DNA of 64,000 bases from Candidatus Nezhaarchaeales archaeon (GTDB taxonomy: Archaea > Thermoproteota > Methanomethylicia > Nezhaarchaeales > WYZ-LMO8). Under the pieces are notes generated by a model. The model saw nothing but the letters and a program-made list of their open reading frames with translations. It ran no database searches and had not been told where the DNA came from. Of this stretch, positions 1,581 through 19,740 are shown one piece after another (within the stretch, counting starts at the first letter, position 1; the number at the start of each line of letters is the position of its first letter). The DNA is taken from the NCBI GenBank assembly GCA_038887515.1, contig JAWAKK010000001.1, positions 448,001 through 512,000 on the forward strand, given 5' to 3'. A program made the position numbers and the translations under genes.

Positions 1581-3041
1581 TTGAAATTGATAAAGAGTAC
1601 AAGGAGCCTATGCCCCGAATGCCTACAAGTTATCGATGCAAGCGTTTACGAAGAAAATGGGCGCGTATATATTTCTAAATCATGCCCTCAGCACGGAGAG
1701 TTCACAGACGTCTATTGGAGCGACTACGAACTTTACTGCGAAGCCGAGAAGTGGAGTGTCGTAGGCACGGGTATATGGAACCCTCAAAAGAAGAAAGAGA
1801 AGGGTTGCCCTTACGATTGCGGATTATGCGAGAACCATAAGACCTGTACAGTGCTAGGAATCATAGATGTCACAAATAGATGCAACCTTAATTGCCCGAT
1901 ATGTTTTGCCCACGCAGGAGCTATCGGTTACCTCTATGAACCAAATAAGGATCAGATAAGACAAATGCTAAAGAACCTTAGAGGGCTTAAACCCATACCT
2001 CCTACAGCTCTTCAATACTCAGGCGGGGAACCTACCATTAGAAAGGATTTACCAGAGCTAGTTGCCATGGCTAAGGAGGAGGGCTTTAGGCACGTAGAGG
2101 TCAACAGCAACGGTATTGTTCTGGCAAAGAACATAGATTTCTATAAGGAGTTGCTTGATGCAGGCATGTCAACTATATACCTTCAGTTCGATGGCTTAAC
2201 GGATGACGTCTACATTAAGACAAGAGGGCTCCCGCTTCTTGACGTCAAGTTTAGAGTTATAGAAAACGCCAGAAAATTGAATCACGACTCCATAGTTCTA
2301 GTGGTGACCCTCGTCAAGGGGATTAACGATCATCAATTGGGCGATATAATAAGGTTTGCAGCCAAGAACTGCGATGTTGTTAGAGGGATAAACGTCCAGC
2401 CGGTCTCGATAACCGGAAGGATAAATAAAGCAGAGAGAGAAAAGATGAGGATAACTATACCAGACTTTATGAAGCTATGCGAAGAACAGACTGGAGGATC
2501 AATTAGGGTCTCTGATTTTAGGCCAGTACCTTGGCCTGTGGCTTTAGCTAGAGCTGTTGGAGCTCTTAAAGGCAAGAGCTATCCAGAGTTCACGGCTCAC
2601 CCACATTGTGGTGTTGCCACGTTCTTCTTGGTAGAAGGCGATGATATCATTCCCGTGACAAGATACGTAAATGTAGATAAGGTAGCAGAGGACTTCTGGG
2701 AGGTCTATAAGCTTGCATCTGAAGGTAAAAGGTTTAGAGCATACATAAAACTTATGAAGACTAGTAGCCGAATTAAGGGAAGGCTTAGGAAGTACATGTT
2801 GAGCGTACTAGTTAAAGGATCTTATGATGCTCTCGGACAACTCATGAGAAAGATGGTGTTGCTGGGCTGCATGCACTTCATGGATCCTTACAACTTTGAT
2901 ACCCAAAGAGTTGAGAGGTGCTGCATTCACTACGCTCTACCTGATGGAACCATAAGGCCCTTCTGCACCTACAATAGCATCCATCGATCGTCAGTGGAAA
3001 AAGCCTTGAGTACCCCAATTTCGCTTAAAACTGAGAGTTGA
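1581..3041 (+). CDS. tes: Tetraether lipid synthase (Tes/GDGT-MAS, MJ0619 family radical SAM)
   Basis: N-terminal CPEC..CPQH metal site, CPYDCGLCENH cluster motif, CNLNCPIC radical SAM motif, C-terminal MHFMDPYNFD..RV.RCCIHY...PFC. Confidence 0.88.
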   Translation: MKLIKSTRSLCPECLQVIDASVYEENGRVYISKSCPQHGEFTDVYWSDYELYCEAEKWSVVGTGIWNPQKKKEKGCPYDCGLCENHKTCTVLGIIDVTNRCNLNCPICFAHAGAIGYLYEPNKDQIRQMLKNLRGLKPIPPTALQYSGGEPTIRKDLPELVAMAKEEGFRHVEVNSNGIVLAKNIDFYKELLDAGMSTIYLQFDGLTDDVYIKTRGLPLLDVKFRVIENARKLNHDSIVLVVTLVKGINDHQLGDIIRFAAKNCDVVRGINVQPVSITGRINKAEREKMRITIPDFMKLCEEQTGGSIRVSDFRPVPWPVALARAVGALKGKSYPEFTAHPHCGVATFFLVEGDDIIPVTRYVNVDKVAEDFWEVYKLASEGKRFRAYIKLMKTSSRIKGRLRKYMLSVLVKGSYDALGQLMRKMVLLGCMHFMDPYNFDTQRVERCCIHYALPDGTIRPFCTYNSIHRSSVEKALSTPISLKTES

Positions 3042-4859: not shown

Positions 4860-4992
4860 ATGCTCTAGCGCAAAGTGACACCCCTCTATTCGGGGGTTTA
4901 AGTTTTATGCTTTTATTACGTAAGACGTTGAGAAGTAAAACTTATTAGCCTTCTATAAAAAGTTGTAGGCTTGCGGAGGCTTCAGATCATGG

Positions 4993-6570
4993 GTGATCGT
5001 CAAATCGAGGTTCATTGAGATATACGATACCACTCTAAGGGATGGAGCTCAAGGCGTTGGGATTAGCTTCTCGCTTCAAGACAAAATAAGTTTAACGTTA
5101 AAACTCGACGAGTTCGGAATACCCTTCATTGAAGGGGGTTGGCCCTTCTCAAACCCCAAGGATGAAGAGTTCTTTAAAGCAATAAAGAATTATCACCTTA
5201 AGTATGCTAAAATAACAGCTTTTGGAAGCACTAAGAGGAAAGACGTTAAACCTGAAAATGACGAAAACCTTAATGCTATAATCGACTGCGGCGTAGATTA
5301 CGCAACGATATTTGGTAAAGCGTGGACCCTTCATGTCAGGGAGGTTTTAAAAGTTAAGCTCCATGACAACCTAGATATGATATACGATTCGATAAGCTAT
5401 CTAAGGGACCATGGAATAAAAGTGATATTTGATGTCGAACACTTCTACGATGGTTACAAGGAGGATCCCGAGTACGCTATAAAGGTACTCGAAGTTGCTT
5501 GGGAAGCCGGTGCCGAGAGACTTGTTCTATGCGATACCAATGGAGGTACCCTGACTCACGAGTTCTACGAAATAACGAAGAAAATATGCGAAAAGTTTGG
5601 CAGCAGTATAGGAGTCCACTGTCACAACGACTCTGGATTAGCCGTGGCCAATAGCTTAATGGCTGTAATAGCCGGGGCAGTTCATGTTCAAGGGACCATT
5701 AACGGTATTGGAGAAAGATGTGGTAATGCAGATCTCTGTCAAGTAATTCCTGCTTTGGAACTTAAAATGGGCCTTAAAGCTTTAAGGAAAGCTAATGGAC
5801 TTCAAGAGCTTAAAACGCTTTCGACATTTGTATATGACCTCGTCGGGATGGATCCCAATCCGTATCAACCCTACACGGGACAATACGCGTTTGCTCATAA
5901 AGCTGGTGCGCATAGCGACGGAGTAATAAAAGTGTCGAGGGCATATGAGCATATAGACCCATCGCTTGTAGGTAATGAAAGGCTTATAACCGTCTCTGAG
6001 CTTTCGGGTAGATCCGCTATAGTCTACAAGGCTAGAAAGTTCGGGCTGAACCTTGATAGAAACGATTCTGTGGTCCTAAAGGTTTTGAGAACGGTCAAAG
6101 AACTCGAATCTTCCGGCAAGAGATACGAAGATGCTGATGGCTCGCTTTACCTTCTAATACTGAAGTCCATGGGTAAATATAGGCCTCACTTTGAAGTATT
6201 GTCGTGGACCGTCACGAGTAGAGCAAGTAAAACAGGTGTAAAGTCTTTATGTAATATAAAGCTCAAAGTTAAGGGGAGGATAATTGCGAGCACTGCGGAA
6301 GGAATAGGCCCCGTACACGCACAGGACTTAGCCCTAGTCGAGGCTTTAAAGTCTGAGTATCCATGCATTGAAGCCGTTAGACTGATGAACTACAAGGTGT
6401 CAATAGTTGGCAGAAGCGCAGGAACGGCATCGGTTGTAAGGGTTCTCATAGAGTTTGAGGGGAACGGAGAGTATTGGTCGACAGCAGGGTCTTCAGCTAA
6501 CATACTTGAAGCAAGTATGGAGGCGCTAGTTGATGGATACGAGTTTTACCTCCATAGACGCGAACCGTGA
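4993..6570 (+). CDS. cimA: Citramalate synthase (DRE-TIM family)
   Basis: DTTLRDGAQ, IEGGWP.SNPKD, HCHND, GIGERCGN, FAHKAG.H, C-terminal regulatory domain. Confidence 0.85.
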   Translation: MIVKSRFIEIYDTTLRDGAQGVGISFSLQDKISLTLKLDEFGIPFIEGGWPFSNPKDEEFFKAIKNYHLKYAKITAFGSTKRKDVKPENDENLNAIIDCGVDYATIFGKAWTLHVREVLKVKLHDNLDMIYDSISYLRDHGIKVIFDVEHFYDGYKEDPEYAIKVLEVAWEAGAERLVLCDTNGGTLTHEFYEITKKICEKFGSSIGVHCHNDSGLAVANSLMAVIAGAVHVQGTINGIGERCGNADLCQVIPALELKMGLKALRKANGLQELKTLSTFVYDLVGMDPNPYQPYTGQYAFAHKAGAHSDGVIKVSRAYEHIDPSLVGNERLITVSELSGRSAIVYKARKFGLNLDRNDSVVLKVLRTVKELESSGKRYEDADGSLYLLILKSMGKYRPHFEVLSWTVTSRASKTGVKSLCNIKLKVKGRIIASTAEGIGPVHAQDLALVEALKSEYPCIEAVRLMNYKVSIVGRSAGTASVVRVLIEFEGNGEYWSTAGSSANILEASMEALVDGYEFYLHRREP

Positions 6571-6656
6571 TGGCTGTATCGAGTCGGCCTTCAAGCTCCA
6601 TAGCTTTTAAAACTTATTAGCTTTAGTAAACCATTAACTAATTCGGTGGATGCGTC

Positions 6657-7070
6657 TTGTTCGATGGCTTTAGGGCTCTCAGGATGAAGATCCTAGCAGA
6701 GAAGATATCTGTAGACGACGCTATGCGTTGTCTCTTGGGCTTAAGTCGAGACGAAGTTAAAGCGTACTTCATGCTACTAAATAACCCTATGACCATTGAG
6801 GATATAGCAAAAGCCTTAGGCAAAAGCAAGCCTTCCGCTTACAGGATAGCTGTTAAGCTTACAAACATGGGTCTCCTAGTAAGGAAAGCTTACCTAATAG
6901 ATAAGGGAGGGTACTACTACAAGTATGAAGCCGTCGAACCAGAAAAAGTTAAGAGAGAATTACAGGAAGCAGTTAACGTCGTGTGCAAGAAGGTAATGGA
7001 GGCTTTGCACCAAGATTTCGAGGAGATCAAGAGAAGGCTGCAAAGTACCGAACCCAGAAGGGCCGCTTAA
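6657..7070 (+). CDS. TrmB-like winged-helix transcriptional regulator (likely start ATG 6684)
   Basis: CLLGLS..EV..Y..LL, HTH, GGYYYKYEAV pattern. Confidence 0.75.
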   Translation: MFDGFRALRMKILAEKISVDDAMRCLLGLSRDEVKAYFMLLNNPMTIEDIAKALGKSKPSAYRIAVKLTNMGLLVRKAYLIDKGGYYYKYEAVEPEKVKRELQEAVNVVCKKVMEALHQDFEEIKRRLQSTEPRRAA

Positions 7071-7155
7071 AGCTCACTTTTTAAAATCACATTAAATAAT
7101 TCATAAAACTTAAAGTTCCCTTGCCCGTCTTCCTAAAAGTTGGTGTAACTAGACC

Positions 7156-7623
7156 TTGTCAGTGAGAATATCCCCACTTCAAGTCTATAAGCTTCTACCC
7201 GGGTTGAATTGTAAAAAATGCGGTACGACCTGTATGGGTTTTGCAGTTAAGCTCGTAAGTAAACAAGCTAAAATAGAAGAGTGTATGCCGCTTATTGTCG
7301 AACCTAAGTACTCTGATAAGCTGGCGAAATTGAGAGAACTTTTGGCTCCAGTAATTTCTGCGAGCGAGACTTTAATTCAAATAGATTATGAGAAGTGCAT
7401 TGGATGCGGCAATTGTGTCGTTGCATGTCCGGAAAACATAATTTTAGATCCGATGACTTCGAAAGGTTACAATCCGAAGAAAGCCGACGCTCTATGGACC
7501 ATTGAGGACGGCAAGATAAAGATCCTACACTTAGAGAAGTGTAGACGTTATCCTCCATCGAGGCTGAACTGCAACGTCTGCGAGCTTGTCTGTTATAGCG
7601 GGGCTATTAGAGTGGTGGCGTAG
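7156..7623 (+). CDS. fwdG: Fe-S domain + 2x[4Fe-4S] protein, FwdG-like
   Basis: YKLLPGLNCKKCG.TCMGFA..C Fe-S domain plus CIGCGNCVVACP and C..CNVCELVC. Confidence 0.7.
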   Translation: MSVRISPLQVYKLLPGLNCKKCGTTCMGFAVKLVSKQAKIEECMPLIVEPKYSDKLAKLRELLAPVISASETLIQIDYEKCIGCGNCVVACPENIILDPMTSKGYNPKKADALWTIEDGKIKILHLEKCRRYPPSRLNCNVCELVCYSGAIRVVA

Positions 7624-7625
7624 AA

Positions 7626-8861
7626 GTGATCGTAGAGAATGCGGTGTGCACCGGTTGCTCACTATTTTGTAACGATATAGATGTAGAAGTAGAGAACCTT
7701 TCAGTTATTAAGACGAGAGGTGCTTGTAGTCATGGAACTGCTAGGCTTAAGGGCTTTCATCAGAACAGGCTTAAGGAGCCGCTTCTAGAAGGCAAAAAAG
7801 TTGGTGTTGACGAGGCTGTAGAGGCTATAGCTGAGAAGATCAAGCAGTCTAGAGCTCCGTTAATTTATGGCGGAGAGTCATCTAGCAATAGGGTCGTCGA
7901 ACTAGCATTAAGATTGGCGGAGAAAATCTACGCATACTATGATTCTCCACCTTCCATATGCAGAATAACGGTACCTATCCAAGAAGAAGTTCGAGTTAAA
8001 AACTTAACACTCGATGAGATATTAGACGAAGCCGACTTTGTGCTCTACTGGGGCGTAAGCATAGCCGACACACACTTGCGGCACGCCAGTAAGTACGCGG
8101 TTATGCCTCGAGGTAGAACGATAAAGATGGGGAGGGAAAACAGAGTCGTTTCGGTGATAGACGTAAGGGAATCTATGAGTATGAAGATAGCTCAACATAG
8201 GATAGTAATTAATCCTTGTACTGATATTTACATGGTTAAGGCAATAATGGACTCTATGGAGGGGTCAGCCCAAATACTTGGCGCATCAACAGCAAGACAA
8301 GTAATGTTAATGTCATCTGACCTTAAAGGCGCCTCATCTATAGCAATTTTCTTAGGTCGAGGCATAATGAGATGCGGAAAGGGTGAAGAAAACGTAAGGG
8401 CACTCTTAAGTTTAGCGAAAACGCTAATTGAAGAACGTAAGTGCTCAGTCCATCCATTAGCCGAAAATATTAACTCTTACGGCCAAGCGAAAGTTATGTG
8501 GAAAACCTTAGGGACATGCCTACCGTACAACTTTAAAGAAAGAAAGGTGGTGGAACCAGTTGACTCTTTACTTGCACGTACGAACATAGATTTCGTCCTA
8601 GCCATTGGTAGCGACTTCCTCACCCAGATACCTCTTCAAATTTCAAAGAAACTTAAAGGAAAGATAGCGTGTACTACCGAGCTAAAAAGCGTGACGCAGG
8701 CCTATTCTAATATCGCTGTGCCAGTCAAAATTTTAGGGGTCGAGACTGGAGGAGTCGTTACTAGGACGGATGGGGTGGACGTTGAACTCAAACATTTTAT
8801 ATGTAACGAAGAATTGCCAAGCGAAGAAGAGGTCTTAAATCGCCTGCTATCTTTAATCTAA
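7626..8861 (+). CDS. fwdB: Formylmethanofuran dehydrogenase subunit B-like W/Mo-pterin protein (divergent active site)
   Basis: CTGCSLFCND..C [4Fe-4S] motif, TLDEI..ADFVLYWG...THLRH.SKY...PRG, GVETGG...RTDGV. Confidence 0.75.
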   Translation: MIVENAVCTGCSLFCNDIDVEVENLSVIKTRGACSHGTARLKGFHQNRLKEPLLEGKKVGVDEAVEAIAEKIKQSRAPLIYGGESSSNRVVELALRLAEKIYAYYDSPPSICRITVPIQEEVRVKNLTLDEILDEADFVLYWGVSIADTHLRHASKYAVMPRGRTIKMGRENRVVSVIDVRESMSMKIAQHRIVINPCTDIYMVKAIMDSMEGSAQILGASTARQVMLMSSDLKGASSIAIFLGRGIMRCGKGEENVRALLSLAKTLIEERKCSVHPLAENINSYGQAKVMWKTLGTCLPYNFKERKVVEPVDSLLARTNIDFVLAIGSDFLTQIPLQISKKLKGKIACTTELKSVTQAYSNIAVPVKILGVETGGVVTRTDGVDVELKHFICNEELPSEEEVLNRLLSLI

Positions 8862-8871
8862 GGTGTTATAG

Positions 8872-11256
8872 ATGCTTCAAATCAGTAGCGATCTGTCGGC
8901 TCAAGAAAGCGTAGAAAGAGTATTGATATTCGTGTGTAAATGCGGTACAAACATTGCAGGCGTAATAGACGTAGGGCAAGTAATTAGGCACTTTTCAGGT
9001 AAAAGCGGAGTGATTGTTAGGGATCACGAGCACTGTTGTAGCAATGATGGTCTCAAGAAAATAAGGGAAGCAATAAAAGAAGAAAAGGTTTCGAGATTAA
9101 TAATAGCATGTTGCACTCCATCGCTTCATGGAGAGCTGTTCAAAAAAAATGCCGAAGAGGCTGGCTTAAATCGAGGATTCGTGGAGATAGTAAATATACG
9201 AGAACAATGCTCATGGGTTCACTATCATGACCCTGAAAGAGCTACTAACAAGGCGATAGACCTCATAGAGATGGCGCTAGCGGCAGCTCGACATACTGTG
9301 CCAACTAAAGTCCTTAAAGTGCCTGTTGAAAAGGCCGTCCTAGTAATTGGAGGAGGAGTTGCCGGAGTTACTGCAGCACTATTGCTAGCAGAAATGGGCT
9401 TTAAAGTCTATTTAGTAGAGAGGGAGGGCTTCATAGGGGGGCATATGGCTAAGTGGGATAAAGTGTTTCCAACACTGGATTGTAGTATATGCGTCTTAGG
9501 CCCCCAATTATCTAAACTTTACAATCATCAGAACGTAGAGGTACTGACTCTAAGCGAAGTCAAGTCTATAAAGGGTTTTCCAGGAAATTATGAAGTAGAG
9601 ATATTAAAAAAGGCTCGGTACGTTAATGAGAAGCTCTGTAATGGTTGTAATAAATGTCTCGAAGTTTGTCCAATACAATTGCCTAACGAGTATGATTATG
9701 GCATCGGGTTTAGAAGCGCAATAGTGAAGCCGTCGCCGGAAGCCGTCCCACAGGCCCCCTACATAGACTTAAAGCACTGTATTGGATGTTATTGTTGTTT
9801 CGGAGTTTGCGATCCTAAAGCTATAGATTTTAAGGATGAAGATAAAATAATAAAGCTTAAAGTTGGAGCCATAGTCGTCGCCACGGGCTTTAAGCCTTCC
9901 CAATTCAAAGAGCTAGCTGACTACGGCTACGGAAAGATACCGGACGTTGTAACCGGTGCAGAATATGAGAGATTATTGAACAGCTCCGGTCCGACGAATG
10001 GAACTATTGTAAGGATATCTGATGGAAGGAAACCTAAAAAGATAGCCTTTATTCAATGTGTTGGCAGTAGGAGCGATAGGATAGGTCGTAGGTATTGTAG
10101 TAGGGTATGCTGTAACTACGCAATAAAGCAAGCGGTCCAGACTAAACTTGCGAGACCGGAAGTCGATATAGCGATTTTTTACGTAGACATTAGAGCTACG
10201 GGTAAATTGGCCGAAGAGGCCTATAGACGAGCGATGGAGATGGGGATAAGGTTCATAAAAGCTAGGGTGGGCGAAGTCAAGAGGGCGAAAAATGGTAACG
10301 TAAAAGTATTTTACGAAGACATTTTAAGTGGAGAAATTACAGAAGAAGAATTCGATTTAGTGGTCCTGAGTGTAGGGATGGAGCCCCCCGAAGGGCTTAG
10401 AGACATCGCTATAATGACCGGCATCCCTATAGGTGAAGATGGCTTCCTTACTGAGTATCATCTTAAACTCAATCCCGCCGACACTTTCAATAAGGGGATT
10501 TATTTAGCTGGTGCTTGTTCAGGTCCAAAGGACATAACCGAGTCGGTGTCTCAAGCAGGGTTAGCGGCTTCGAGGATCTCAGAGCTCTTATTAAGAGGGG
10601 AAGTCGAAGTCGAGGTGTATGCTCCAATAGTGGATAGGACTAAGTGTAGGCTTTGCTTTAACTGTGTGAGAGTCTGTCCATTTAATTCCTTAAAACCCAG
10701 CAAGGGTGCTGTTGAAGTTGACGAAATAAGTTGTAGGGGTTGCGGGGCATGTATAGCGGCCTGCCCGACGGGTGCTCTAATTCCTCAAGGAAGTCTAAAT
10801 AATGAACAGATCTCAGCCATGCTGAAAGCTCTACTATCGAGGAAGAGCGAGTTTCCACTTATAGTGGCTTTTATGTGTATGTGGTGTAGTTATGCTGCAG
10901 CTGACAATGCTGGTTTGAGTAAAATCGTCTATCCTACGAACATTAGGATTATAAGAGTACCCTGCACCGTAAGAGTTTCTCCAAGTAATATATTAGAGGC
11001 TTTTAAGCTAGGAGCAGATGGGGTCATGGTACTTGGCTGTTACGAGCAAGACTGTCACTATAGAGTTGGAAGGAAGAGAGCTAACGAAAGGGTTAGAACG
11101 CTGAAAGAGCTATTAAGAAACGTCGGAATAAACCCTGAAAGACTCGTAATTGATGGCGTCGCAGCTTCAGAAGGTAAAAAGTTAGCGGAACTAGTGAGGT
11201 CCTTTGTTGAGGAAATTACTAAACTTGGCCCAATAGGCTCAGAGTTCGGGGTGTAG
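8872..11256 (+). CDS. hdrA: Heterodisulfide reductase subunit A fused to MvhD
   Basis: CKCGTNIAG, REQCSWVH, GGGVAG, DKVFPTLDCSIC, QCVGSR, YCSRVCC, GPKDI; C-terminal MvhD FMCMWCSY..GCYEQDCHY. Confidence 0.93.
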   Translation: MLQISSDLSAQESVERVLIFVCKCGTNIAGVIDVGQVIRHFSGKSGVIVRDHEHCCSNDGLKKIREAIKEEKVSRLIIACCTPSLHGELFKKNAEEAGLNRGFVEIVNIREQCSWVHYHDPERATNKAIDLIEMALAAARHTVPTKVLKVPVEKAVLVIGGGVAGVTAALLLAEMGFKVYLVEREGFIGGHMAKWDKVFPTLDCSICVLGPQLSKLYNHQNVEVLTLSEVKSIKGFPGNYEVEILKKARYVNEKLCNGCNKCLEVCPIQLPNEYDYGIGFRSAIVKPSPEAVPQAPYIDLKHCIGCYCCFGVCDPKAIDFKDEDKIIKLKVGAIVVATGFKPSQFKELADYGYGKIPDVVTGAEYERLLNSSGPTNGTIVRISDGRKPKKIAFIQCVGSRSDRIGRRYCSRVCCNYAIKQAVQTKLARPEVDIAIFYVDIRATGKLAEEAYRRAMEMGIRFIKARVGEVKRAKNGNVKVFYEDILSGEITEEEFDLVVLSVGMEPPEGLRDIAIMTGIPIGEDGFLTEYHLKLNPADTFNKGIYLAGACSGPKDITESVSQAGLAASRISELLLRGEVEVEVYAPIVDRTKCRLCFNCVRVCPFNSLKPSKGAVEVDEISCRGCGACIAACPTGALIPQGSLNNEQISAMLKALLSRKSEFPLIVAFMCMWCSYAAADNAGLSKIVYPTNIRIIRVPCTVRVSPSNILEAFKLGADGVMVLGCYEQDCHYRVGRKRANERVRTLKELLRNVGINPERLVIDGVAASEGKKLAELVRSFVEEITKLGPIGSEFGV

Positions 11257-12564
11257 ATGTTGAAAGCCTCTAAACCGATGGTCGAGGTCGAAGTGGGAGA
11301 GAAGATTCTAGGGTATAAGTGGAAGGCTCCCATCCTGGAGAAGAAGCTCTTCTATCGCCTCGACAAGTGCTTTGGTTGTGGACTCTGCGAAGTCGTTTGC
11401 CCAGTAGGAGCAATATTCATGGGACCTGTGAAGGAAATAGCATCGGGTAGAGTTGAAGCACCATATGTAATGATTGATGAAACAAAGTGCGTGGTCTGCA
11501 CGCTCTGTTCGTCCATATGTCCTTCAGGAGCACTAGAATTCAAGTATCGATCAGAACTCGAATACCCAAAGGTAAGAGGTCGTATAGAGGTAGATACAAA
11601 AAAGTGCATTCCATGTCTGCTTTGTGAGAAAATATGCCCGAGAAAAGCCATCAAAGTCGAGGTCTCACTCAAAAAGAAGAACGAGCTAGTAAAATATGTC
11701 AAAGAAGGCGAGTCGTGGGGTAAGGGTAATATAAGTATTGATGTTAAAAAGTGTTGCTATTGCGGTCTATGCGAGCTTTTGTGCGACGCCATAAAAATAG
11801 AGTGGGCTAAACCTAGACCACCCGATTTTAGACCTGGATTATCAGTAACGATAGATAAGACTGAGTGTGATTACTGCGGTCTATGCGAAAGAGTTTGCCC
11901 AGTAGGAGCAATAAAAGTTGAGTGCATAGAGTCTGCTCCTAGAGAGATAAAGGAGCCGGCCATCGAGGGCACAATAAAGATAAGCGAAGACTGCATTTGG
12001 TGTGGGCTATGTAGCAGTTTTTGCCCAGTAAACGCAATTAAGGTTGAAAAGCCCTTTGATGGTGAAGTCTTTATGGTTGAACCTAATGAATGCGATCCTT
12101 CAGGATGTAAGAATTGCATAAACGTATGCCCGATAAACATCGTTTACGTGTCCAAGCCGCCCTCGAAGAGCAAAATGCTTTTCGCTAAGAATTATTGCAT
12201 ATTCTGCGGAGCATGCGAAAAAGCTTGCCCGGTAAATGCTATACGAGTTATAAGAAAGAACATGAGACTTGAGGGCTTAAGTTCTCTTTGGTTTAACATG
12301 AACATTGAATACTTAAATAGAGTATTAGTTGGTTATAAACCTCCTAAACCCAGCATTTACCATAGAGCTGTCAGAGTGGAAGAGACATTAACGGTACCTC
12401 AGCCATCAGCTTCAATGCCTCAGACACCAAAAGGCTTTAGTACACTCGTTGAGAAAGTTGAAAGGCTTATGAAGTTACTATCAGGCACGGCCGAGAGACT
12501 GATGTTCGAGAATTCTAAGATTGATGAGTTACTACTTAAATTAAGAGGTGAAAAGCTTGATTAA
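11257..12564 (+). CDS. fwdF: Polyferredoxin, FwdF-like
   Basis: About eight CxxCxxCxxxC(P) motifs. Confidence 0.8.
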   Translation: MLKASKPMVEVEVGEKILGYKWKAPILEKKLFYRLDKCFGCGLCEVVCPVGAIFMGPVKEIASGRVEAPYVMIDETKCVVCTLCSSICPSGALEFKYRSELEYPKVRGRIEVDTKKCIPCLLCEKICPRKAIKVEVSLKKKNELVKYVKEGESWGKGNISIDVKKCCYCGLCELLCDAIKIEWAKPRPPDFRPGLSVTIDKTECDYCGLCERVCPVGAIKVECIESAPREIKEPAIEGTIKISEDCIWCGLCSSFCPVNAIKVEKPFDGEVFMVEPNECDPSGCKNCINVCPINIVYVSKPPSKSKMLFAKNYCIFCGACEKACPVNAIRVIRKNMRLEGLSSLWFNMNIEYLNRVLVGYKPPKPSIYHRAVRVEETLTVPQPSASMPQTPKGFSTLVEKVERLMKLLSGTAERLMFENSKIDELLLKLRGEKLD

Positions 12565-12900
12565 GCTTGTAGGTTCTCCTGCAGACTTCGAAACCCTGAC
12601 TTTGATTGGCAATAATTGCTCGCCCGGCCCAACTAGAGCCATGGCGTGCGGAGAAGGCGGCATAAACGTTAAGCCCTTCTTGACTTCGCTTCTAACTCTT
12701 GCCCGAACTTTTACCGAGCCATGCTTTGAACGTACCTCTACTACATCGCCTTCATTTACTCCAATGGATGAGGCGTCTTCCGGGCTCATGTATATCGTTG
12801 CCGATTCCCTCGCATATTCATCACTTAAAGAGCCAAAACGCTTTGCTTTTTCAAAGTCGTGGAAGCTCTCAATTAATAAGTCCACTTCTAGCTCGATCAC
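12541..12900 (-). CDS. fwdD: FwdD-like molybdopterin dinucleotide-binding subunit (antisense to surrounding cluster; probable GTG start 12900)
   Basis: SDEY....ATIYMSPEDA..IGV.EGD.VEV.SKHGSV.VRA......G..FMP.SPHA.ALV. Confidence 0.8.
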   Translation of the reverse strand: MIELEVDLLIESFHDFEKAKRFGSLSDEYARESATIYMSPEDASSIGVNEGDVVEVRSKHGSVKVRARVRSEVKKGLTFMPPSPHAMALVGPGEQLLPIKVRVSKSAGEPTSLIKLFTS

Positions 12901-12915
12901 AAGAGACGCAAGGGG

Positions 12916-13401
12916 GTGGGCTTCATAAATAATTTTCTTGAAGCCAGAAGGTGCATTCAATGCGGTGCCTGCACCTCGGTCTGCCCCGTATCCAAGGCAA
13001 CGAGAAAGTTTAACCCTAGACTACTGATGTATGCAGCTAAAAGAGGGGTAATAGTTAAAAGTGATGACGTATGGTTCTGCCTAAGATGTCATGCCTGTGA
13101 AGCTAAATGCCCGAATTCTATCAAGATACCGGACATCATAACTTATATGAGAAGCAAAATTTTGGAGGAAGGTTATGAGAAAAGAGTTATCGAGTTCTAT
13201 TTAGATACTGTAAAGACGCTGCTTGATAGCGGTTTAACGATTGTAGCATCTAATAATAAAATAGAGGAATTTAAGGTTGAGAATGGGTTAAATATCCCTT
13301 CATTTACGGAGGAAGTAAAGTCAGAACTTTGGGGCTTCTTGAGGAAAATTAACTTAGAAAGCAGATTAAGAGACGTGATGAAAATTGATAAAAGACTTTA
13401 G
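12916..13401 (+). CDS. hdrC: Heterodisulfide reductase subunit C
   Basis: CIQCGACTSVCP, FNPR, WFCLRCHACEAKCP. Confidence 0.85.
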   Translation: MGFINNFLEARRCIQCGACTSVCPVSKATRKFNPRLLMYAAKRGVIVKSDDVWFCLRCHACEAKCPNSIKIPDIITYMRSKILEEGYEKRVIEFYLDTVKTLLDSGLTIVASNNKIEEFKVENGLNIPSFTEEVKSELWGFLRKINLESRLRDVMKIDKRL

Positions 13402-14242
13402 CGCGGAGGCCATCCTTTTCCCTGGATGTAGGGCCCTCAACAAATATCCTGGAATCTCTAGTTCATCACTCGAAGTCTTAAAGTTGCTAGGCCTAAAGGT
13501 AAAGCTTCCTACGAACATTTTATGTTGTGGGCGTCCCGTCGAGAGCACAGGGATATTAAAAGATGAGCAAACGAATGCACTGGCCTACTTTAACTTGACT
13601 AAGCTGATGGATAAACCAAGATACTTAATCGTAGTGTGTAATGGCTGCTATTCTGTCTTTAGTAGGGCGTTGAGTTTAAGAGAACTTAAATCCGAATACG
13701 GAATTGACCCTGAATGTTTTCACGTAGCAGAGGTCGTATGGCTCAAGAGGCATGATCTTGCTAAAAAAGCCAAGCTAAACTTCAATAAACTGAAGGTCGC
13801 AGTTCAAGTTGGTTGCCACTACCTTTACTCTCCATATCGAGAAACCATTAAGGGGGAGGAAGGAGAAGATATACTAGAAGATATAGCGCTGGCTTTCAAC
13901 GCTAAAGTGGTGGACTACGAAGAAAAACGTACTTGCTGCGGAGGTCCGGTTATTAAGTGGCTTGGACACGTTACCTCTACAATATCGCACGAAAAAGCGA
14001 AAAGCTTCATAGAAAGCGATGCAGACTTGCTTTTAACTATGTGTCCAACTTGTTTGGCTACGCTCGATAAAGCTCAACAAGAGCTTATGAATTTAGGGAA
14101 AGTTGAAAGGACCATACCTATACTACATGTATCTCAATTCGTTGCTCTAGCACTTGGCTTTGACTCCGTAAAGACCTTAGGGTTTCATCTACAGCTTTCA
14201 CATCAAGAACTTCAAGCCCTCCACTCTATATTGAACGTTTAG
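13385..14242 (+). CDS. hdrB: Heterodisulfide reductase subunit B
   Basis: Two complete CCG domains: FPGC/CCG/CNGC and GCH/CCG/CPTC. Confidence 0.85.
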   Translation: MIKDFSAEAILFPGCRALNKYPGISSSSLEVLKLLGLKVKLPTNILCCGRPVESTGILKDEQTNALAYFNLTKLMDKPRYLIVVCNGCYSVFSRALSLRELKSEYGIDPECFHVAEVVWLKRHDLAKKAKLNFNKLKVAVQVGCHYLYSPYRETIKGEEGEDILEDIALAFNAKVVDYEEKRTCCGGPVIKWLGHVTSTISHEKAKSFIESDADLLLTMCPTCLATLDKAQQELMNLGKVERTIPILHVSQFVALALGFDSVKTLGFHLQLSHQELQALHSILNV

Positions 14243-15306
14243 GTTGACCCTCCTTCTCTAATCTCCCCTTCGACTTCGGGTTGAAGAAGGGACGCTAAAG
14301 CTATTATTGCGCTTGAAGCGGCGAAGTCGGTTGCTATAGTCACACCCGGGCATAGATCAACGACTGCAGAGGCGTACCTAAAGACGCCTTTAGGTATGCC
14401 TTCCCTCGAGCCCACTAAGACGTTCACCCTCTTGCCGCTTAACAGAAGCGTTCTAAGCTTATCGGCAATTGAGCCAACATATTCTCCCTCGGGCTCGAAG
14501 ACTATAATAACCTCACCGGACCTCTCTCTTACGAGCTGAAATAGATCTTGAACTAGTATCGGAACTCTGTAGACTTCCCTCCCATAAACTCTACGTTGAA
14601 CCTCGTACCTCGTCTTCATGCCATCATAGAGCCCGTCTATGAAGTCTCTTAGTTGCTTGGCATTTACTGCACCTATTATCGCTACGACGAGTTCACCTAC
14701 TTCAAACGTTTGTACTGCCCGACCTATCCTTATACCCATGTTCTTAGAAGCTTTTTCGTCTCCTAGGTATGGTAATTGGACGACAGAGATCTTCCTTAGA
14801 ACCCTTATAATGGGCTTCTTTTGGGGTGTTATCTTCTTGAACTCTTCGCTGCCCGGATAAACAGTTATGTATGCTTCATCCCCTACTATCTCTATAGCCA
14901 CAACCTTGTCCGGTTTATCTAAGTTCACGGTAGCACCCGTAGCTTCCTTAATAGCAGCCCCGACCGCTACATTAACGTCGATGCTAGTGAATTTGTGTCT
15001 TCCCCGCCTAGTAGTTCTAACGGCAAATGTTTCGTCGGGTCCTATAAGGCCATTAATCGCTTCAACTGCGACACTTGTTATCTCTTTGAGTTCTGCTTTG
15101 CATTTGACTATGGATTTTATAGCCCTTTCTATTTCAACAACTTCTTCATTAATCTTCTTCAGGAGTTCGTCTTCATTTGTCGATTCTATGAGTATTACCC
15201 CCGCAAAACCTTGAGGTGAAATCTGAACCTTAGCTTGAGGACAGAGTTCCCTTATCCTTGCTGCTGCCACCTTCTCCATTCCTAGTAAGGTTTTAGCTAT
15301 TATCAA
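14239..15306 (-). CDS. THUMP + SPOUT RNA methyltransferase
   Basis: TFAVRTTRRG.H.FTSIDVN..VG THUMP; EPEG, GSREGIP, DLCPG SPOUT knot. Confidence 0.8.
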   Translation of the reverse strand: MIIAKTLLGMEKVAAARIRELCPQAKVQISPQGFAGVILIESTNEDELLKKINEEVVEIERAIKSIVKCKAELKEITSVAVEAINGLIGPDETFAVRTTRRGRHKFTSIDVNVAVGAAIKEATGATVNLDKPDKVVAIEIVGDEAYITVYPGSEEFKKITPQKKPIIRVLRKISVVQLPYLGDEKASKNMGIRIGRAVQTFEVGELVVAIIGAVNAKQLRDFIDGLYDGMKTRYEVQRRVYGREVYRVPILVQDLFQLVRERSGEVIIVFEPEGEYVGSIADKLRTLLLSGKRVNVLVGSREGIPKGVFRYASAVVDLCPGVTIATDFAASSAIIALASLLQPEVEGEIREGGST

Positions 15307-15385
15307 GGCTTACCCCTAAATCTTTATACCGGAGATTTTGAAAATGTTCATATTGGGCTATGAGCTAGCATGTCGCGCCTGACTT

Positions 15386-15443
15386 GTGATGATGCCCTCA
15401 ATACGCGAGCCCGGCCTACCGATGTCTTTACAAGCTAAGCTGA
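15386..15443 (+). ncRNA. Candidate C/D box guide sRNA
   Basis: GTGATGA - 12 nt - GCGA ... CCGATGT - 14 nt - CTGA, 58 nt, intergenic; internal boxes degenerate. Confidence 0.45.
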
Positions 15444-16666: not shown

Positions 16667-18226
16667 TTATTGTCTTTGGGGGAACCCTCCAAACTTCTCT
16701 CTCAGTTCCCTATACAGGATCTTCCAGCCACCCATTCTCGGCAGGCTGTCGAGGAATATTACGTAGCGCGGTACCTTATAGCTAGCTATCCTCTCCTTGC
16801 AGAACTCTATTATCTCTTCACTAGTTGCCTCGACGCCCGGCTTTAAAACTATGGCTGCAGCCGGAACCTCCCCCCTTCTTTCATCGTATTTAGCAAAGAC
16901 CGCTGCCTCGGCAACTTTAGGGTGCTTAAGTAGTACGCTTTCGACTTCGGCTGGATATATTTTCCAACCAGACATTATTATCACGTCCTTCTTCCTCGCA
17001 GTTACGTATAGGATCCCCTCGTCTAGATAGCCTAAATCGCCCGTCAAGAACCAACCATCTTGTAGAAATGCCTTTGCCGTCTCCTCTGGGTTTCTCCAGT
17101 AGCCCTTGGCTACTCCGGGACCCCTCAAAGCTATCTCTCCCACCTCTCCCGGTTTTAGTTCTATCGACGGGTTTTCTGGATCGACTATCTTGACCTCACA
17201 ATAGCTTACCGGTGCTCCAACACTCTTGAACCCTTTAGATAAATGTTGGAAGGAGAAAGACACCGCGGTAGCCGTCCCTACGACGATAGTTTCAGAAAGT
17301 CCATATGCATTGACCACCTCTATGTGAGGGTACCTCTCCGTGAACCTTCTCCAAAGTTCTTCAGGTGTTGGCGCTCCACCAGTTATTATACACCTGGCGC
17401 TTCTGAGCTTATCCTCGGAGCCTGGAGGCGCGTGAAGCAGTGAATAAAGTACTGGAGGCATCCCGGATAGGATCGTAGCCCTGTTTTCATCCGCCAACTT
17501 CAAGTACTCGTCCAGGTTGAAGCGCTCCATGATCACGAAGGTTGCCCCGTACCTTAATGCTGTTATCCCCCAACTGACACCAACGTGAAAATGCGGATAG
17601 ATTCCGAGGTATACGTCGCTCTCCGTTAACTTTAAAACCCATCTTTCAGCTTCGACGGCTGCCATCCAGTTCCCGTGAGTCAACATCGCACCTTTAGGTC
17701 TACCGGTAGTCCCCGACGTATACTGTATTTGACATAAGTCGTCGAACGAGCAATTCTCAGGGACGCATTTAGTAGCTGAAGTCTCTATTACCTCACTTAT
17801 GCTGATGGTACTGCCAACACCTTCAAGCGATAGGACCTTTACTTCACTTAAGTCGACATTAACCTTTGGCAGTACGTTAATGCAAACGTCGTCTAACGCT
17901 ATTATAACCTTCGGTTCGGAGTCGTTTATTATGTTCGTTAGTTCCTCCGACTTGAAGTCCGGATTGACCGGAACCGCTATCGCCCCTATCCTCCAGATGG
18001 CAAAGTAACTTATTATGGTCTCAGGCCTATTGCCAGTACACACTATTGCTCTGTCCCCCTTTCGAAGTCCAAGATTCTTCAGTCCATTGGCTAGCCTACT
18101 AACTTTTTCAAGAAGTTCCCTATAGGTAATGGTCTCTTGCCCTTTCGGGTACACGATTGCCTGTTTGGCACCATAATATATGGAGTTGGAGTCTAAGAAA
18201 GATGTGAAGTTAACCATTAGCATCAC
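16667..18226 (-). CDS. AMP-forming acyl-CoA synthetase (long-chain fatty acid-CoA ligase family)
   Basis: YTSGTTGRPKG, YGLSE, GWFLTGDLG, YKVPR. Confidence 0.9.
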   Translation of the reverse strand: MMLMVNFTSFLDSNSIYYGAKQAIVYPKGQETITYRELLEKVSRLANGLKNLGLRKGDRAIVCTGNRPETIISYFAIWRIGAIAVPVNPDFKSEELTNIINDSEPKVIIALDDVCINVLPKVNVDLSEVKVLSLEGVGSTISISEVIETSATKCVPENCSFDDLCQIQYTSGTTGRPKGAMLTHGNWMAAVEAERWVLKLTESDVYLGIYPHFHVGVSWGITALRYGATFVIMERFNLDEYLKLADENRATILSGMPPVLYSLLHAPPGSEDKLRSARCIITGGAPTPEELWRRFTERYPHIEVVNAYGLSETIVVGTATAVSFSFQHLSKGFKSVGAPVSYCEVKIVDPENPSIELKPGEVGEIALRGPGVAKGYWRNPEETAKAFLQDGWFLTGDLGYLDEGILYVTARKKDVIIMSGWKIYPAEVESVLLKHPKVAEAAVFAKYDERRGEVPAAAIVLKPGVEATSEEIIEFCKERIASYKVPRYVIFLDSLPRMGGWKILYRELREKFGGFPQRQ

Positions 18227-19740
18227 TTCAGAGGCTCTAAAGCTTCAGAGGAAGGCTTCTTAGTAAGTAAACTAACAATGAAGAACAGCGGCAACGAAAC
18301 TGCTAAAGCTGGTAAGACGGCGTGTACGCTGGTGGTTTTATATAGGAATAAGTGCCAAGATAAACCGATCACTAGACCTGAAATCATTGACGATATTGCG
18401 CCGATTTTTGTAGCCCCCTTCCAGTAGAGACCTATAGTTACAGGACCTAAGAAGCAGACGAAAAGTGTTCCGAAAGCTGCTGCAACTATGTCGACTATTA
18501 TTTCTTCTTGGACTAACGTCAGCATAAGCGATATCGCGGCGAATACTATTGGAACGACCCTTGCCAAGGCCACCAACTTGTCCTCATGTACCTCAGGCTT
18601 AAACGATTGTATTACATCTCTCGTAAGAGTTGCTGACAACACGATGAGAGTTACTGCTAGGGTTGACATTGACGCCGCTACCGGTGCTGCTAATATTAGG
18701 CCTCGCACGCCTGAGGGTGCGAGGATGTTTATGGTCCTGGGAATAACCCAATCAGAGTCCTTCATCAAGCTTGCGACCTCGCTGACTGACAATTGCTTAT
18801 CGAGGATTAAGTGGCAGAACGCACCTAGCGAGAAAACGGTAATCGCATAAGCTGCCACTAGCACTGGCCCTAAAAGCCTTCCCTTACTTATTACTTTTAC
18901 ATTTTTAGCAGCATAAAATTGCATCAGCAAGCTTGGTAGAGCCACTTGAGCCATGCTTATTGAAAACGTTATTCCCATTATCATTTGCGGGACCATGCCA
19001 GTCTCCATTGCCCGGGGCGGTCCGGCACCATCAAGCTTAAGCCATAAGGATCCGGGCAATTTGTCCATTATCATCATTTGTTGAAGCTTCTTAATGCCTT
19101 CAAATGGACCACCAACGGCTGCCATTATGTAGCCGAAAGCTAAGAAAGCGGCCAAGAGCATCAGAGAACCCAGTAGAAGGTTGTTGAGTATGGCGGCTCG
19201 AAGCCCACCGAGACCGACATATATTAAGACAGGAATTGTTAATAGCATCAAGCCCACTTCAAAGCTCGTGCCCAGGAGCGTAGCAATTATTATCGCGCCC
19301 CCCTTGTAAACGCTGGTCAAGTACAGTGTGAAGAGGAATATCATAACCATTGCCGAGACGGCTTTCGCAGCCCTACTTTCGTACCTGCGTTCTATGAAGT
19401 CTGGTATGCTAATTATGTTAGTTTTCGAGGCATACTTGAACAACCTTTCGGCAACTAGAATCCACATAAGCACTACTCCTATTACGTGCCATGCCGTAAG
19501 CCATGCTCCAAAGCCTAAATTAAAGAGATACGTAGCACCTCCTCCTCCAAGGAAGGAGGCGGCGCTGAAATATGTGGCCATTATGGAGAAGGCTAGAGCA
19601 ACTGCTCCAAGCCCCCTTCCCGCCAGGAAGTAGCCGGTCATCGACTTGCTGACGCTGTAACCCTTGACCCCTATGAGGATTACCACAACCACCATGACTA
19701 TTATCACGGAGATATCAAGGAAGTCTAGTCCCATGCTCAC
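18223..19740 (-). CDS. Sodium:solute symporter
   Basis: YFLAGRGLG, SAASFLG, AASMST, about 13 TM segments. Confidence 0.9.
   Translation of the reverse strand: MSMGLDFLDISVIIVMVVVVILIGVKGYSVSKSMTGYFLAGRGLGAVALAFSIMATYFSAASFLGGGGATYLFNLGFGAWLTAWHVIGVVLMWILVAERLFKYASKTNIISIPDFIERRYESRAAKAVSAMVMIFLFTLYLTSVYKGGAIIIATLLGTSFEVGLMLLTIPVLIYVGLGGLRAAILNNLLLGSLMLLAAFLAFGYIMAAVGGPFEGIKKLQQMMIMDKLPGSLWLKLDGAGPPRAMETGMVPQMIMGITFSISMAQVALPSLLMQFYAAKNVKVISKGRLLGPVLVAAYAITVFSLGAFCHLILDKQLSVSEVASLMKDSDWVIPRTINILAPSGVRGLILAAPVAASMSTLAVTLIVLSATLTRDVIQSFKPEVHEDKLVALARVVPIVFAAISLMLTLVQEEIIVDIVAAAFGTLFVCFLGPVTIGLYWKGATKIGAISSMISGLVIGLSWHLFLYKTTSVHAVLPALAVSLPLFFIVSLLTKKPSSEALEPLK

Follow-up and report, generated by a model that had tools for sequence, protein, structure and literature searches.

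The gene cluster analyzed here lies in a 64,000-nucleotide stretch (hereafter the window) of a Candidatus Nezhaarchaeales genome and joins a heterodisulfide-reductase-type (Hdr) gene set to a second, divergent FwdB/FwdD pair. Its closest described counterpart is the 'Fwd-Hdr' cluster of the cultured Ca. Methanonezhaarchaeum fastidiosum YNP3N, in which a second FwdBD is reported to be colocated with HdrABC, FwdF, and FwdG, the soluble Hdr is accompanied by neither FdhAB nor MvhABG, and a separate FwdABCD with a fused FwdBD lies beside Wood–Ljungdahl genes (Kohtz et al., 2025, Sci Adv, PMC12700198). The same source reports expression of the cluster genes in the YNP3N culture and describes species and families of the class that lack methyl-coenzyme M reductase (MCR). 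In Methanosarcina, fwdG2B2D2 and hdrA1-pfd have been named, and the fwd2 genes are reported to be weakly expressed in M. acetivorans (Rohlin and Gunsalus, 2010, PMC2838876). The HdrA-MvhD fusion enzyme HdrA2B2C2 of M. acetivorans uses ferredoxin and F420H2, and the F420H2-dependent activity of the recombinant enzyme was reported for a preparation without Fwd-like subunits (Yan et al., 2017, PMC5296606). HdrA2 and its polyferredoxin are also described in anaerobic methanotrophic archaea (ANME), with no link to a FwdB paralog of the present kind mentioned in the sections consulted (Chadwick et al., 2022, PMC9012536), and the FmdF 'Groups 3–6' found beyond classical methanogens are described as uncharacterised and unlikely to form known architectures (PMC13580544, 2026).

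The window comprises positions 448001–512000 of contig JAWAKK010000001.1 (C1; coordinates so prefixed are contig positions) in a genome of 1.29 Mb and nine contigs that is rated 94% complete. Eight genes between window positions 6657 and 14242 are considered: a TrmB/Lrs14-like regulator and a seven-gene FeS/flavin cluster encoding a FwdG-like FeS protein (FeS_G), a FwdB paralog (FwdB'), an HdrA fused to MvhD, a polyferredoxin, a FwdD-like protein (FwdD'), and HdrC- and HdrB-like subunits (HdrC' and HdrB') (Table 1). Judged by homology and conserved gene order, the balance tips slightly toward the view that this locus encodes an Hdr–polyferredoxin–FwdG'B'D' bifurcating complex that would not carry out ordinary CO2/formate chemistry. 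An archaeon from a hot spring, without methane-making genes, still keeps an electron-splitting Hdr joined to an altered second FwdB/FwdD pair. The initial annotation, made from the sequence alone, had described a packed seven-gene cluster behind a TrmB-like regulator; all of its genes and coordinates stand and its gene observation is confirmed, but fwdD proves to lie on the minus strand and the 'fwdG' to carry an extra FeS domain. Its interpretation of the locus is partly supported. The label 'candidate new' complex does not survive comparison with the reported Fwd-Hdr arrangement in YNP3N (PMC12700198) and fwdG2B2D2 in Methanosarcina (PMC2838876), and the cluster type is already published.

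Sequence matches to solved structures are decisive for the predicted folds of FwdB', HdrB', and the FwdG-like protein. FwdB' aligns over its full length with 8rja_B, 9sfi_Q, 9sw6_J, 5t5i_B, and 7bkb_H (E values from 2e-39 to 3e-33), HdrB' aligns with the HdrB structures 9sfi_C, 5odc_B, and 8rvv_B at about 1e-24, and the C-terminal half of FeS_G finds FmdG of M. hungatei as its best PDB match (7bkb_L, 2.1e-08) and also matches 5t5i_G (4.8e-07). When the residues are mapped onto 5t5i_B, C112 of FwdB' corresponds to Cys118 and R113 to His119, and A279-E280-N281 takes the place of Arg288-Gly289-His290. The N-terminal [4Fe-4S] cysteines C8, C11, C15, and C34 are kept and are invariant in both alignments made (A1 and A2). 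We take Cys118 (M. wolfeii FwdB numbering) to be the tungsten ligand, and His119 and Arg288 are reportedly catalytic and shared with formate dehydrogenases. The Arg missing from FwdB' is the one used by formate/CO2 enzymes of the same fold. As shown by these alignments, FwdB' keeps the putative [4Fe-4S] site and metal-ligand Cys and lacks the catalytic His and Arg. Among 15 canonical FwdB sequences, 64 positions reach at least 90% conservation; the Nezhaarchaeales subclade of FwdB' retains 55% of these, and other FwdB' groups retain 52–79%. No mention of an altered FwdB' active site was found in the main-text passages covered by our literature search, and the consulted part of Lemaire and Wagner (2024, PMC11656701) touches neither on these Arg and His residues of FwdB nor on FwdB paralogs.

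A FwdB family search of the genome returned two matches, of 534.6 bits (C1:39655–40914) and 257.9 bits (the window copy), the latter under the TIGR03129 equivalog cut-off of 327.8 bits. The higher-scoring, canonical FwdB is part of a 580-amino-acid FwdD–FwdB fusion in a cluster of genes for an MptN-type glutamate ligase, ftr, mtd, fwdDB, fwdA (716 bits), fwdC (232 bits), mer, and mch. The only FwdA and the only FwdC of the genome are those of this cluster (C1:40.9–43.4 kb), 415 kb from FwdB', which is 26% identical to the canonical FwdB (110/424 positions). Since a canonical fwdDB stands beside fwdA and fwdC elsewhere, the window FwdB' is a paralog and not half of a split but ordinary Fwd. The case in which the window would hold the only fwdB/D of the genome, which the initial annotation had named as fatal to its idea, is thereby rejected, and its view that this FwdB/D is not an ordinary Fwd is borne out: it is a second, divergent copy, apart from FwdA/FwdC, with an active site unlike that of every solved FwdB. 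We regard it as highly improbable that the locus encodes an ordinary second Fwd isoenzyme, in which the B, D, F, and G subunits encoded here would share the single FwdA and FwdC encoded elsewhere. The single FwdA and FwdC, the full-length alignment of FwdB' with FwdB structures, and the co-occurrence of FwdA with FwdB' in relatives (14 of 15 carriers, see below) agree with such sharing, but the fused FwdDB directly beside FwdA and FwdC, the low identity and sub-threshold score of FwdB', the lack of Arg288 and His119, and the retention of just 55% of the canonical conserved positions argue against it.

The HdrA of the window is the only HdrA in the genome; 23 other matches cover ferredoxin-type or dinucleotide-binding stretches alone. 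No match of FdhA grade and no Mvh-type hydrogenase was found in the 94%-complete genome. Three [NiFe] hydrogenase large subunits are encoded, none of them Mvh-like: the first belongs to a four-gene cytosolic set with FeS, FAD/NAD-binding, and small subunits, and the other two are group-4 types, one beside FrhB and one beside a NuoH-like gene. The earlier statements that fwdA, fwdC, mvhAG, and fdhAB are absent from the window (C1:448–512 kb) and that a hydrogenase or Fdh donor is lacking thus both hold, the latter genome-wide at the stated completeness, and the whole-genome search that had been proposed located canonical fwdB/D and fwdA/C and returned no mvhAG, FdhA, mcrA, or mcrG. In the same assembly no match was found for mcrA, mcrG, ComA, or ComD (sulfopyruvate decarboxylase alpha). 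Neither the canonical fwd cluster nor, in a tblastn search with the window proteins, any other part of the genome holds a second FwdF- or FwdG-like gene. A CODH/ACS gene, cdhA, is present about 207 kb from the cluster, and no linkage of the cluster to CODH/ACS genes was seen.

Several other loci were considered in these searches. A weak HdrB match at C1:235 kb, considered as a possible second Hdr, was rejected; the gene is HdrD/TfrB-like, stands between two GlcD-like ones (trio at C1:232736–236993; L110:3737–7994), and encodes the only other CCG protein of the genome. A 908-amino-acid pterin protein (C1:254.6–257.3 kb) was rejected as FdhA, being of the DMSO/TMAO-reductase family, and it is the only other large pterin enzyme of the genome; this molybdopterin protein, a four-cluster FeS partner, and an adjoining sodium:solute symporter occupy C1:254590–258160 (L109:5591–9163). 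Two MtrH homologs (419 and 208 bits) are encoded at C1:115816–116700 and C1:240426–241262, and this pair in a genome without detected mcrA/mcrG agrees with the published picture of Methanonezhaarchaeia that lack MCR but retain remnants of Mtr.

A word-indexed search gave 28 proteins at E ≤ 1e-3 among 7686 candidates. Beside FwdB' itself these were 21 proteins at 55–83% identity, several of them named Nezhaarchaeales by source, three at 35–39%, and three canonical-like ones at 25–26%. A profile search of 1.84 billion representatives returned 1407 proteins at E ≤ 1e-3, of which 211 reached E ≤ 1e-30, and a scan of GTDB species genomes yielded 212 confirmed loci, the best 80 of which were used for synteny and tree. 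The hosts of these best 80 include Nezhaarchaeota, Baldrarchaeota, Bathyarchaeia, a 'Kor3' Thermoproteota metagenome-assembled genome (MAG), Methanomethylicota, Hermod-, Thor-, Hel-, Jord-, and Freyarchaeota, other Promethearchaeota, Methanothrix, Methanosarcina, and Methanoperedens.

A FastTree tree was built from 224 sequences, namely the 80 loci, the window copy, the canonical FwdB of the genome, six word-search proteins, and 136 of the 148 representatives P0033–P0180 (the 12 under 380 amino acids were dropped). It is midpoint-rooted only, and its support values are approximate. The FwdB' side of this root holds 141 tips (support 0.919), including 76 of the 80 loci; none of the 141 carries an Arg where Arg288 would stand, and 74 retain the ligand Cys and 67 have lost it. 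The opposite side (83 tips, support 0.997) unites canonical FwdB, bacterial FwdB-like sequences, and four Asgard loci, with Arg in 25 of the 83. The FwdB tree called for at the outset therefore places the window copy outside the canonical group, on the Arg-less side. Within that side, FwdB' groups in a clade of 18 tips that share Ala-Glu at 279–280 (support 0.994) and all keep the ligand Cys, and this clade contains an 8-tip Nezhaarchaeales subclade with Cys-Arg at 112–113 (support 1.0). The four [4Fe-4S] cysteines are present in nearly all of the 224 FwdB-like sequences and in every one whose N-terminus is present.

Copies lacking both the ligand Cys and the Arg were observed in Methanothrix/Methanocrinis (L034, L035, L038, L043, L050, L052, L053, L055, L056, L059, L068, and L070), in Hermodarchaeota (L020, L021, and L023), and in Thorarchaeota and another archaeon (L045, L051, L066, L072, L074, and L080). 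The Cys-less copies in those lineages still keep the four [4Fe-4S] cysteines and the neighboring FeS-protein gene, and other Methanothrix loci retain the ligand Cys.

Gene order around FwdB' is conserved to different depths. In 77 of the 80 loci the gene directly upstream, which shares the strand of FwdB' and is no more than 150 nucleotides away, encodes a FeS protein. The HdrA-MvhD fusion and the polyferredoxin are encoded in 23 of 80 loci (13 of the 44 with flanks of 4.5 kb or more on each side). The genes for FwdD' and the polyferredoxin converge in all 13 loci where both were detected, and HdrC' and HdrB' are present in eight of 80 (the Nezhaarchaeales loci L006–L009, and L010, L011, L018, and L025). 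The four Nezhaarchaeales loci L006–L009 share the gene order and strands of the window cluster, so that conservation in relatives, which the earlier interpretation had made a point of checking, is found. A predicted FwdB'–FeS_G complex scored 0.92, against 0.00 for the best of three controls, and so passed a mark that is reached by 58 of 80 solved complexes and by two of 110 mismatched pairs; its contacts agree by at least 98% between runs, and the partner has a predicted local distance difference test (pLDDT) value of at least 89. The predicted interface involves the cluster region of FwdB' and its residues 147–163, which include the family signature motif. Because a like complex, that of FwdB with FwdG, is already solved, this pass may reflect likeness only and is not proof of binding.

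Among the 62 genomes of the GTDB class, FwdB' is present in 15 (36–100% identity, open reading frames of about 416–435 codons, one partial); the remaining matches, at 27–31% identity, lie in open reading frames of 571–825 codons like those of fused FwdDB, except for one of 433 codons (in genome G050). Of these carriers, three encode mcrA; it is missing from the other 12, seven of which are at least 90% complete. FwdA is found in 14 of the 15, the exception being a genome 62% complete. In family f9, 31 of 32 genomes have mcrA and none has FwdB', and the family of the window genome (f1) includes mcrA-positive genomes. As the genomes are related, these counts are descriptive only and are not a statistical test.

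For the cluster of Nezhaarchaeales, just one proposed mechanism turned up in the printed sources covered, in which the oxidation of formate is coupled to the reduction of heterodisulfide. Kohtz et al. (2025) suggest that FwdB'D' oxidises formate and passes electrons through FwdG and FwdF to HdrABC, which bifurcates them to CoM-S-S-CoB and ferredoxin and so replaces Mvh/Fdh–Hdr. The same gene set and role are proposed there for YNP3N, in which the genes are reported to be expressed (PMC12700198). We consider this reading quite improbable. It is in line with the capacity of FwdBD in ordinary Fwd to interconvert CO2 and formate, with the retained ligand Cys and [4Fe-4S] site, with R113 adjoining that Cys in the Nezhaarchaeales subclade, and with the lack of any other Fdh or Mvh that could feed the only HdrA of the genome. 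It conflicts with the replacement of Arg288 by Ala and of His119 by Arg, with the Arg being kept in none of the 141 family members and the Cys being absent from 67, and with a genome in which mcrA, mcrG, ComA, and ComD were not detected; and with 12 of the 15 class carriers lacking mcrA, no role tied to the methanogenic heterodisulfide can be general. Formate-fed reduction of that heterodisulfide as the general function is opposed by the lack of Arg288 and His119, by the family-wide absence of the Arg, and by the survival of this cluster as sole Hdr where MCR is absent, and the same three observations argue against an ordinary Fwd isoenzyme.

If FwdB'D' does not perform CO2/formate chemistry, it could either be a W/Mo-pterin site altered to take another substrate or serve as a redox scaffold, and we judge these two about equally likely. 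That the window clade strictly conserves the Cys and FwdD' speaks for a bound cofactor, and that 67 of the 141 family members have lost the Cys speaks for a scaffold role in the family at large. On one version, which remains rather unlikely on its own, FwdB'D' would be a working W/Mo-pterin enzyme with a pocket that keeps the Cys ligand but is rebuilt by the changes Arg288 to Ala, Gly289 to Glu, and His119 to Arg, acting on a substrate other than CO2 or formate as an electron input or output of a bifurcating HdrA2–HdrB'C' unit that handles a disulfide other than CoM-S-S-CoB. If so, Nezhaarchaeales would have kept, beyond the loss of methanogenesis, an energy-coupling enzyme not recognised before, with relatives in Baldrarchaeota, Bathyarchaeia, and other archaea.

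It is somewhat unlikely, on the other hand, that FwdB'D' is catalytically dead and that FeS_G, FwdB', FwdD', and the polyferredoxin are only a scaffold and wire through which HdrA2 would exchange low-potential electrons directly with the Wood–Ljungdahl enzymes canonical FwdDB-A-C and CODH/ACS. The four [4Fe-4S] cysteines that persist wherever the N-terminus is present, even though the ligand Cys is lost in so many relatives, would suit a wire; so would the canonical fwd cluster without FwdF/FwdG in a genome with no other FwdF/G-like gene, the presence of FwdA in nearly all carriers, and an N-terminal domain of FeS_G that is 47% identical over 66 amino acids to a stretch beside cdhA (C1:664.0–664.2 kb). 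Against it stand the retention of the ligand Cys in all 18 members of the window clade together with a FwdD-like pterin-capping protein, and the distance of about 207 kb to cdhA.

We return to the bifurcating complex, for which the following wiring is inferred because of homology to solved Hdr-Fmd supercomplexes and of the conserved gene order. The products would assemble into a single soluble complex of the Hdr type that bifurcates (or confurcates) electrons at flavin and that represents, in Nezhaarchaeales, a module old and widespread among archaea. HdrA2, with its FAD, FeS clusters, and fused MvhD, would be the bifurcating core. HdrC'B', in which the non-cubane-cluster cysteines are intact, would be a high-potential arm that reduces a disulfide. 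The polyferredoxin with eight clusters and the FwdG-like protein with three would carry low-potential electrons to or from FwdB'D', which would neither perform ordinary CO2/formate chemistry nor feed FwdA. With mcrA, mcrG, ComA, and ComD not found here and mcrA missing from most carriers, CoM-S-S-CoB from methanogenesis is probably not the disulfide in question. HdrA2B2C2 of M. acetivorans suggests, by analogy, F420H2 or ferredoxin as the likeliest electron donor or partner, and not H2 or formate, and the evidence points to a possible role in ferredoxin or F420 balancing of the Wood–Ljungdahl pathway, independent of methanogenesis.

Several points weigh against this picture. R113 beside the ligand Cys in the Nezhaarchaeales subclade might partly replace Arg288, which keeps a weakened formate hypothesis alive. 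The retention of the Cys throughout the 18-tip clade and of FwdD' fits a working pterin site, whose substrate is possibly a C1 compound. FwdA in 14 of 15 carriers and a canonical fwd cluster without FwdF/FwdG make a functional tie to ordinary Fwd possible. That mcr and com genes are missing is judged from an assembly 94% complete, and for coenzyme M it concerns the ComA/ComDE route only. Finally, the roles given to Cys118, His119, and Arg288 are reported ones, and the alignment with 5t5i_B confirms their numbering.

Modules that join HdrA, polyferredoxin, and FwdG'B'D' occur in Nezhaarchaeales, Baldrarchaeota, Bathyarchaeia, Korarchaeia-type MAGs, several Asgard groups, Methanothrix, Methanosarcina, and Methanoperedens. 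The present genome offers a clean natural test of the formate proposal: the cluster is its sole Hdr, MCR and ComA/ComD were not detected, and the pterin subunit lacks the Arg.

Table 1. Coordinates in the window and identification of the regulator and the seven cluster genes.
Feature	Window position	Strand	Basis of assignment
TrmB/Lrs14/Sta1-like winged-helix regulator	6657..7070	+	PF01978 6.6e-12; NF053606 1.6e-13
FeS_G, FwdG-like three-cluster FeS protein, 155 aa	7156..7623	+	PF04060 and Fer4 motifs
FwdB', divergent FwdB paralog	7626..8861	+	TIGR03129 258.3/257.9 bits; full-length PDB matches
HdrA2-type HdrA with fused C-terminal MvhD	8872..11256	+	NF040770 985.7 bits; PF02662 1.9e-47
FwdF-like polyferredoxin, eight [4Fe-4S] motifs	11257..12564	+	NF042909 264.7 bits, residues 29–351
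FwdD', FwdD-like molybdopterin-dinucleotide-binding domain protein	12541..12900 (open to 12960)	-	PF01568 3.4e-15
HdrC', HdrC-like subunit, two [4Fe-4S]	12916..13401	+	TIGR03290 75.5 bits (cut-off 160); two CxxCxxCxxxC motifs
HdrB', HdrB-like subunit, two complete CCG motifs	13385..14242	+	PF02754 4.4e-22 in two stretches

The regulator gene ends 85 nucleotides 5' of the cluster, and a homolog of about 70% identity occupies the same position in all three Nezhaarchaeales loci that reach far enough upstream (L006, L007, and L009). Along the cluster the spacing is tight, with gaps of 2, 10, and 0 nucleotides, a convergent overlap of 24, and an overlap of 17. FeS_G begins with an RnfB/CdhE-type [4Fe-4S] domain (PF04060, 1.2e-11, residues 14–45), followed by a 2x[4Fe-4S] part, and each of its 12 cysteines is invariant across 19 homologs. 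The best NCBIfam match of the N-terminal domain is the N-terminus of the ACDS gamma subunit. The stretch beside cdhA to which this domain is similar (C1:664035–664232; 47% identity over 66 amino acids) presumably encodes a CdhE/ACDS gamma N-terminus.

The HdrA-MvhD fusion matches NF040770 from end to end (1–777 of 777) at a score under the 1100-bit 'exception' cut-off, with MvhD (PF02662) at residues 664–786, FAD/pyridine-nucleotide motifs from residue 155, and four CxxCxxCxxxC motifs. The polyferredoxin scores under the NF042909 cut-off (375 bits) and has seven CxxCxxCxxxC motifs and one variant at 278–291. Its residues from about 335 to 435 form a Cys-free C-terminal extension of about 85–100 amino acids past the FwdF model match, and homologs in Bathyarchaeia, Baldrarchaeota, and Thorarchaeota are of similar total length and align over about 420–435 amino acids. 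The TIGR03288 score of HdrB' (110.8 bits) is under the cut-off of 345, and its GC...CC...CxxC cysteines are intact in both halves.

FwdD' is 39% identical over 66 amino acids to the FwdD domain of the genome's own fused FwdDB, and alignment with Nezhaarchaeales homologs places its likely start at a GTG at 12900. Its 3' end overlaps that of the polyferredoxin gene, and it lies antisense to the remaining cluster genes. A plus-strand open reading frame at 12548–12928 was rejected as fwdD: its translation is of low complexity and has no Pfam, NCBIfam, or PDB match, and the FwdD-like frame is the antisense one. The likely start of FwdD' lies about 15 nucleotides from that of hdrC' on the opposite strand. 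Given these close, opposed starts, either hdrC'B' would be read through an antisense gene or promoters would lie inside coding sequence. Metatranscriptome runs X2 and X3 of the same study gave 0 reads over window positions 4900–15400, with only about 3% of each run sampled.

Elsewhere in the window, positions 1581–3041 encode a radical SAM protein whose N-terminus carries the HMPTM zinc ribbon (PF23545, 3.3e-21). It is probably a methylase of methanopterin biosynthesis, in keeping with the tetrahydromethanopterin (H4MPT) pathway genes of the genome. On the minus strand, at 16667–19740, an AMP-forming acyl-CoA synthetase gene adjoins a sodium:solute symporter gene, a pair that possibly serves organic-acid uptake and activation.

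Compared with YNP3N, a member of the same taxonomic order, the window cluster contains the complete Fwd-Hdr gene set and has the same gene order as in other Nezhaarchaeales, of which locus L006 comes from the type MAG WYZ-LMO8, whereas mcrA, mcrG, ComA, ComD, and a second Hdr set were not found in the window genome. No mention of a minus-strand FwdD, an extra FeS domain in FwdG, or the His119/Arg288 replacements was found in the consulted sections of Kohtz et al. (PMC12700198). The Methanosarcina loci share the FeS-protein/FwdB' pair, which in L030 lies about 2 kb from the HdrA-MvhD fusion and polyferredoxin genes, and their FwdB' falls on the same Arg-less side of the tree, but it is just 30–32% identical to the window FwdB'. 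In Methanosarcina, FwdD follows FwdB and HdrB2C2 is encoded elsewhere, whereas all seven genes stand together in the window and FwdD' is convergent with the polyferredoxin. The window HdrA matches the HdrA2 model over its full length (986 bits); F420H2- and ferredoxin-dependent heterodisulfide reduction is known for the recombinant M. acetivorans enzyme alone.

GC-rich bacterial FwdB-like sequences without Cys and Arg fall on the canonical-FwdB side of the tree, apart from the FwdB' family. FhcB of the formyltransferase/hydrolase complex (Fhc) in methylotrophic bacteria is presumably a FwdB homolog without a redox active site that does not reduce CO2. Fhc contains FwdA/FwdC homologs and no Hdr. 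FwdG is a 2x[4Fe-4S] subunit of about 80 amino acids that docks on FwdB, to which FeS_G adds the PF04060 cluster domain. Relative to the Hdr-Fmd supercomplexes, the window cluster lacks FmdA/FmdC, Fdh, and Mvh, its MvhD is fused to HdrA, and the site of FwdB' is altered. The Fdh-Hdr-Fmd of Methanospirillum hungatei (7BKB) nevertheless has homologous HdrABC, MvhD, FmdF-type, FmdG, and FmdB/D parts, matched here by 7bkb_H, 7bkb_L, and 7bkb_B, and the Mvh-Hdr-Fmd of Methanothermobacter marburgensis, likewise with homologous parts, is described with the same wiring idea, in which bifurcated low-potential electrons pass to a pterin module (PMC13580544).

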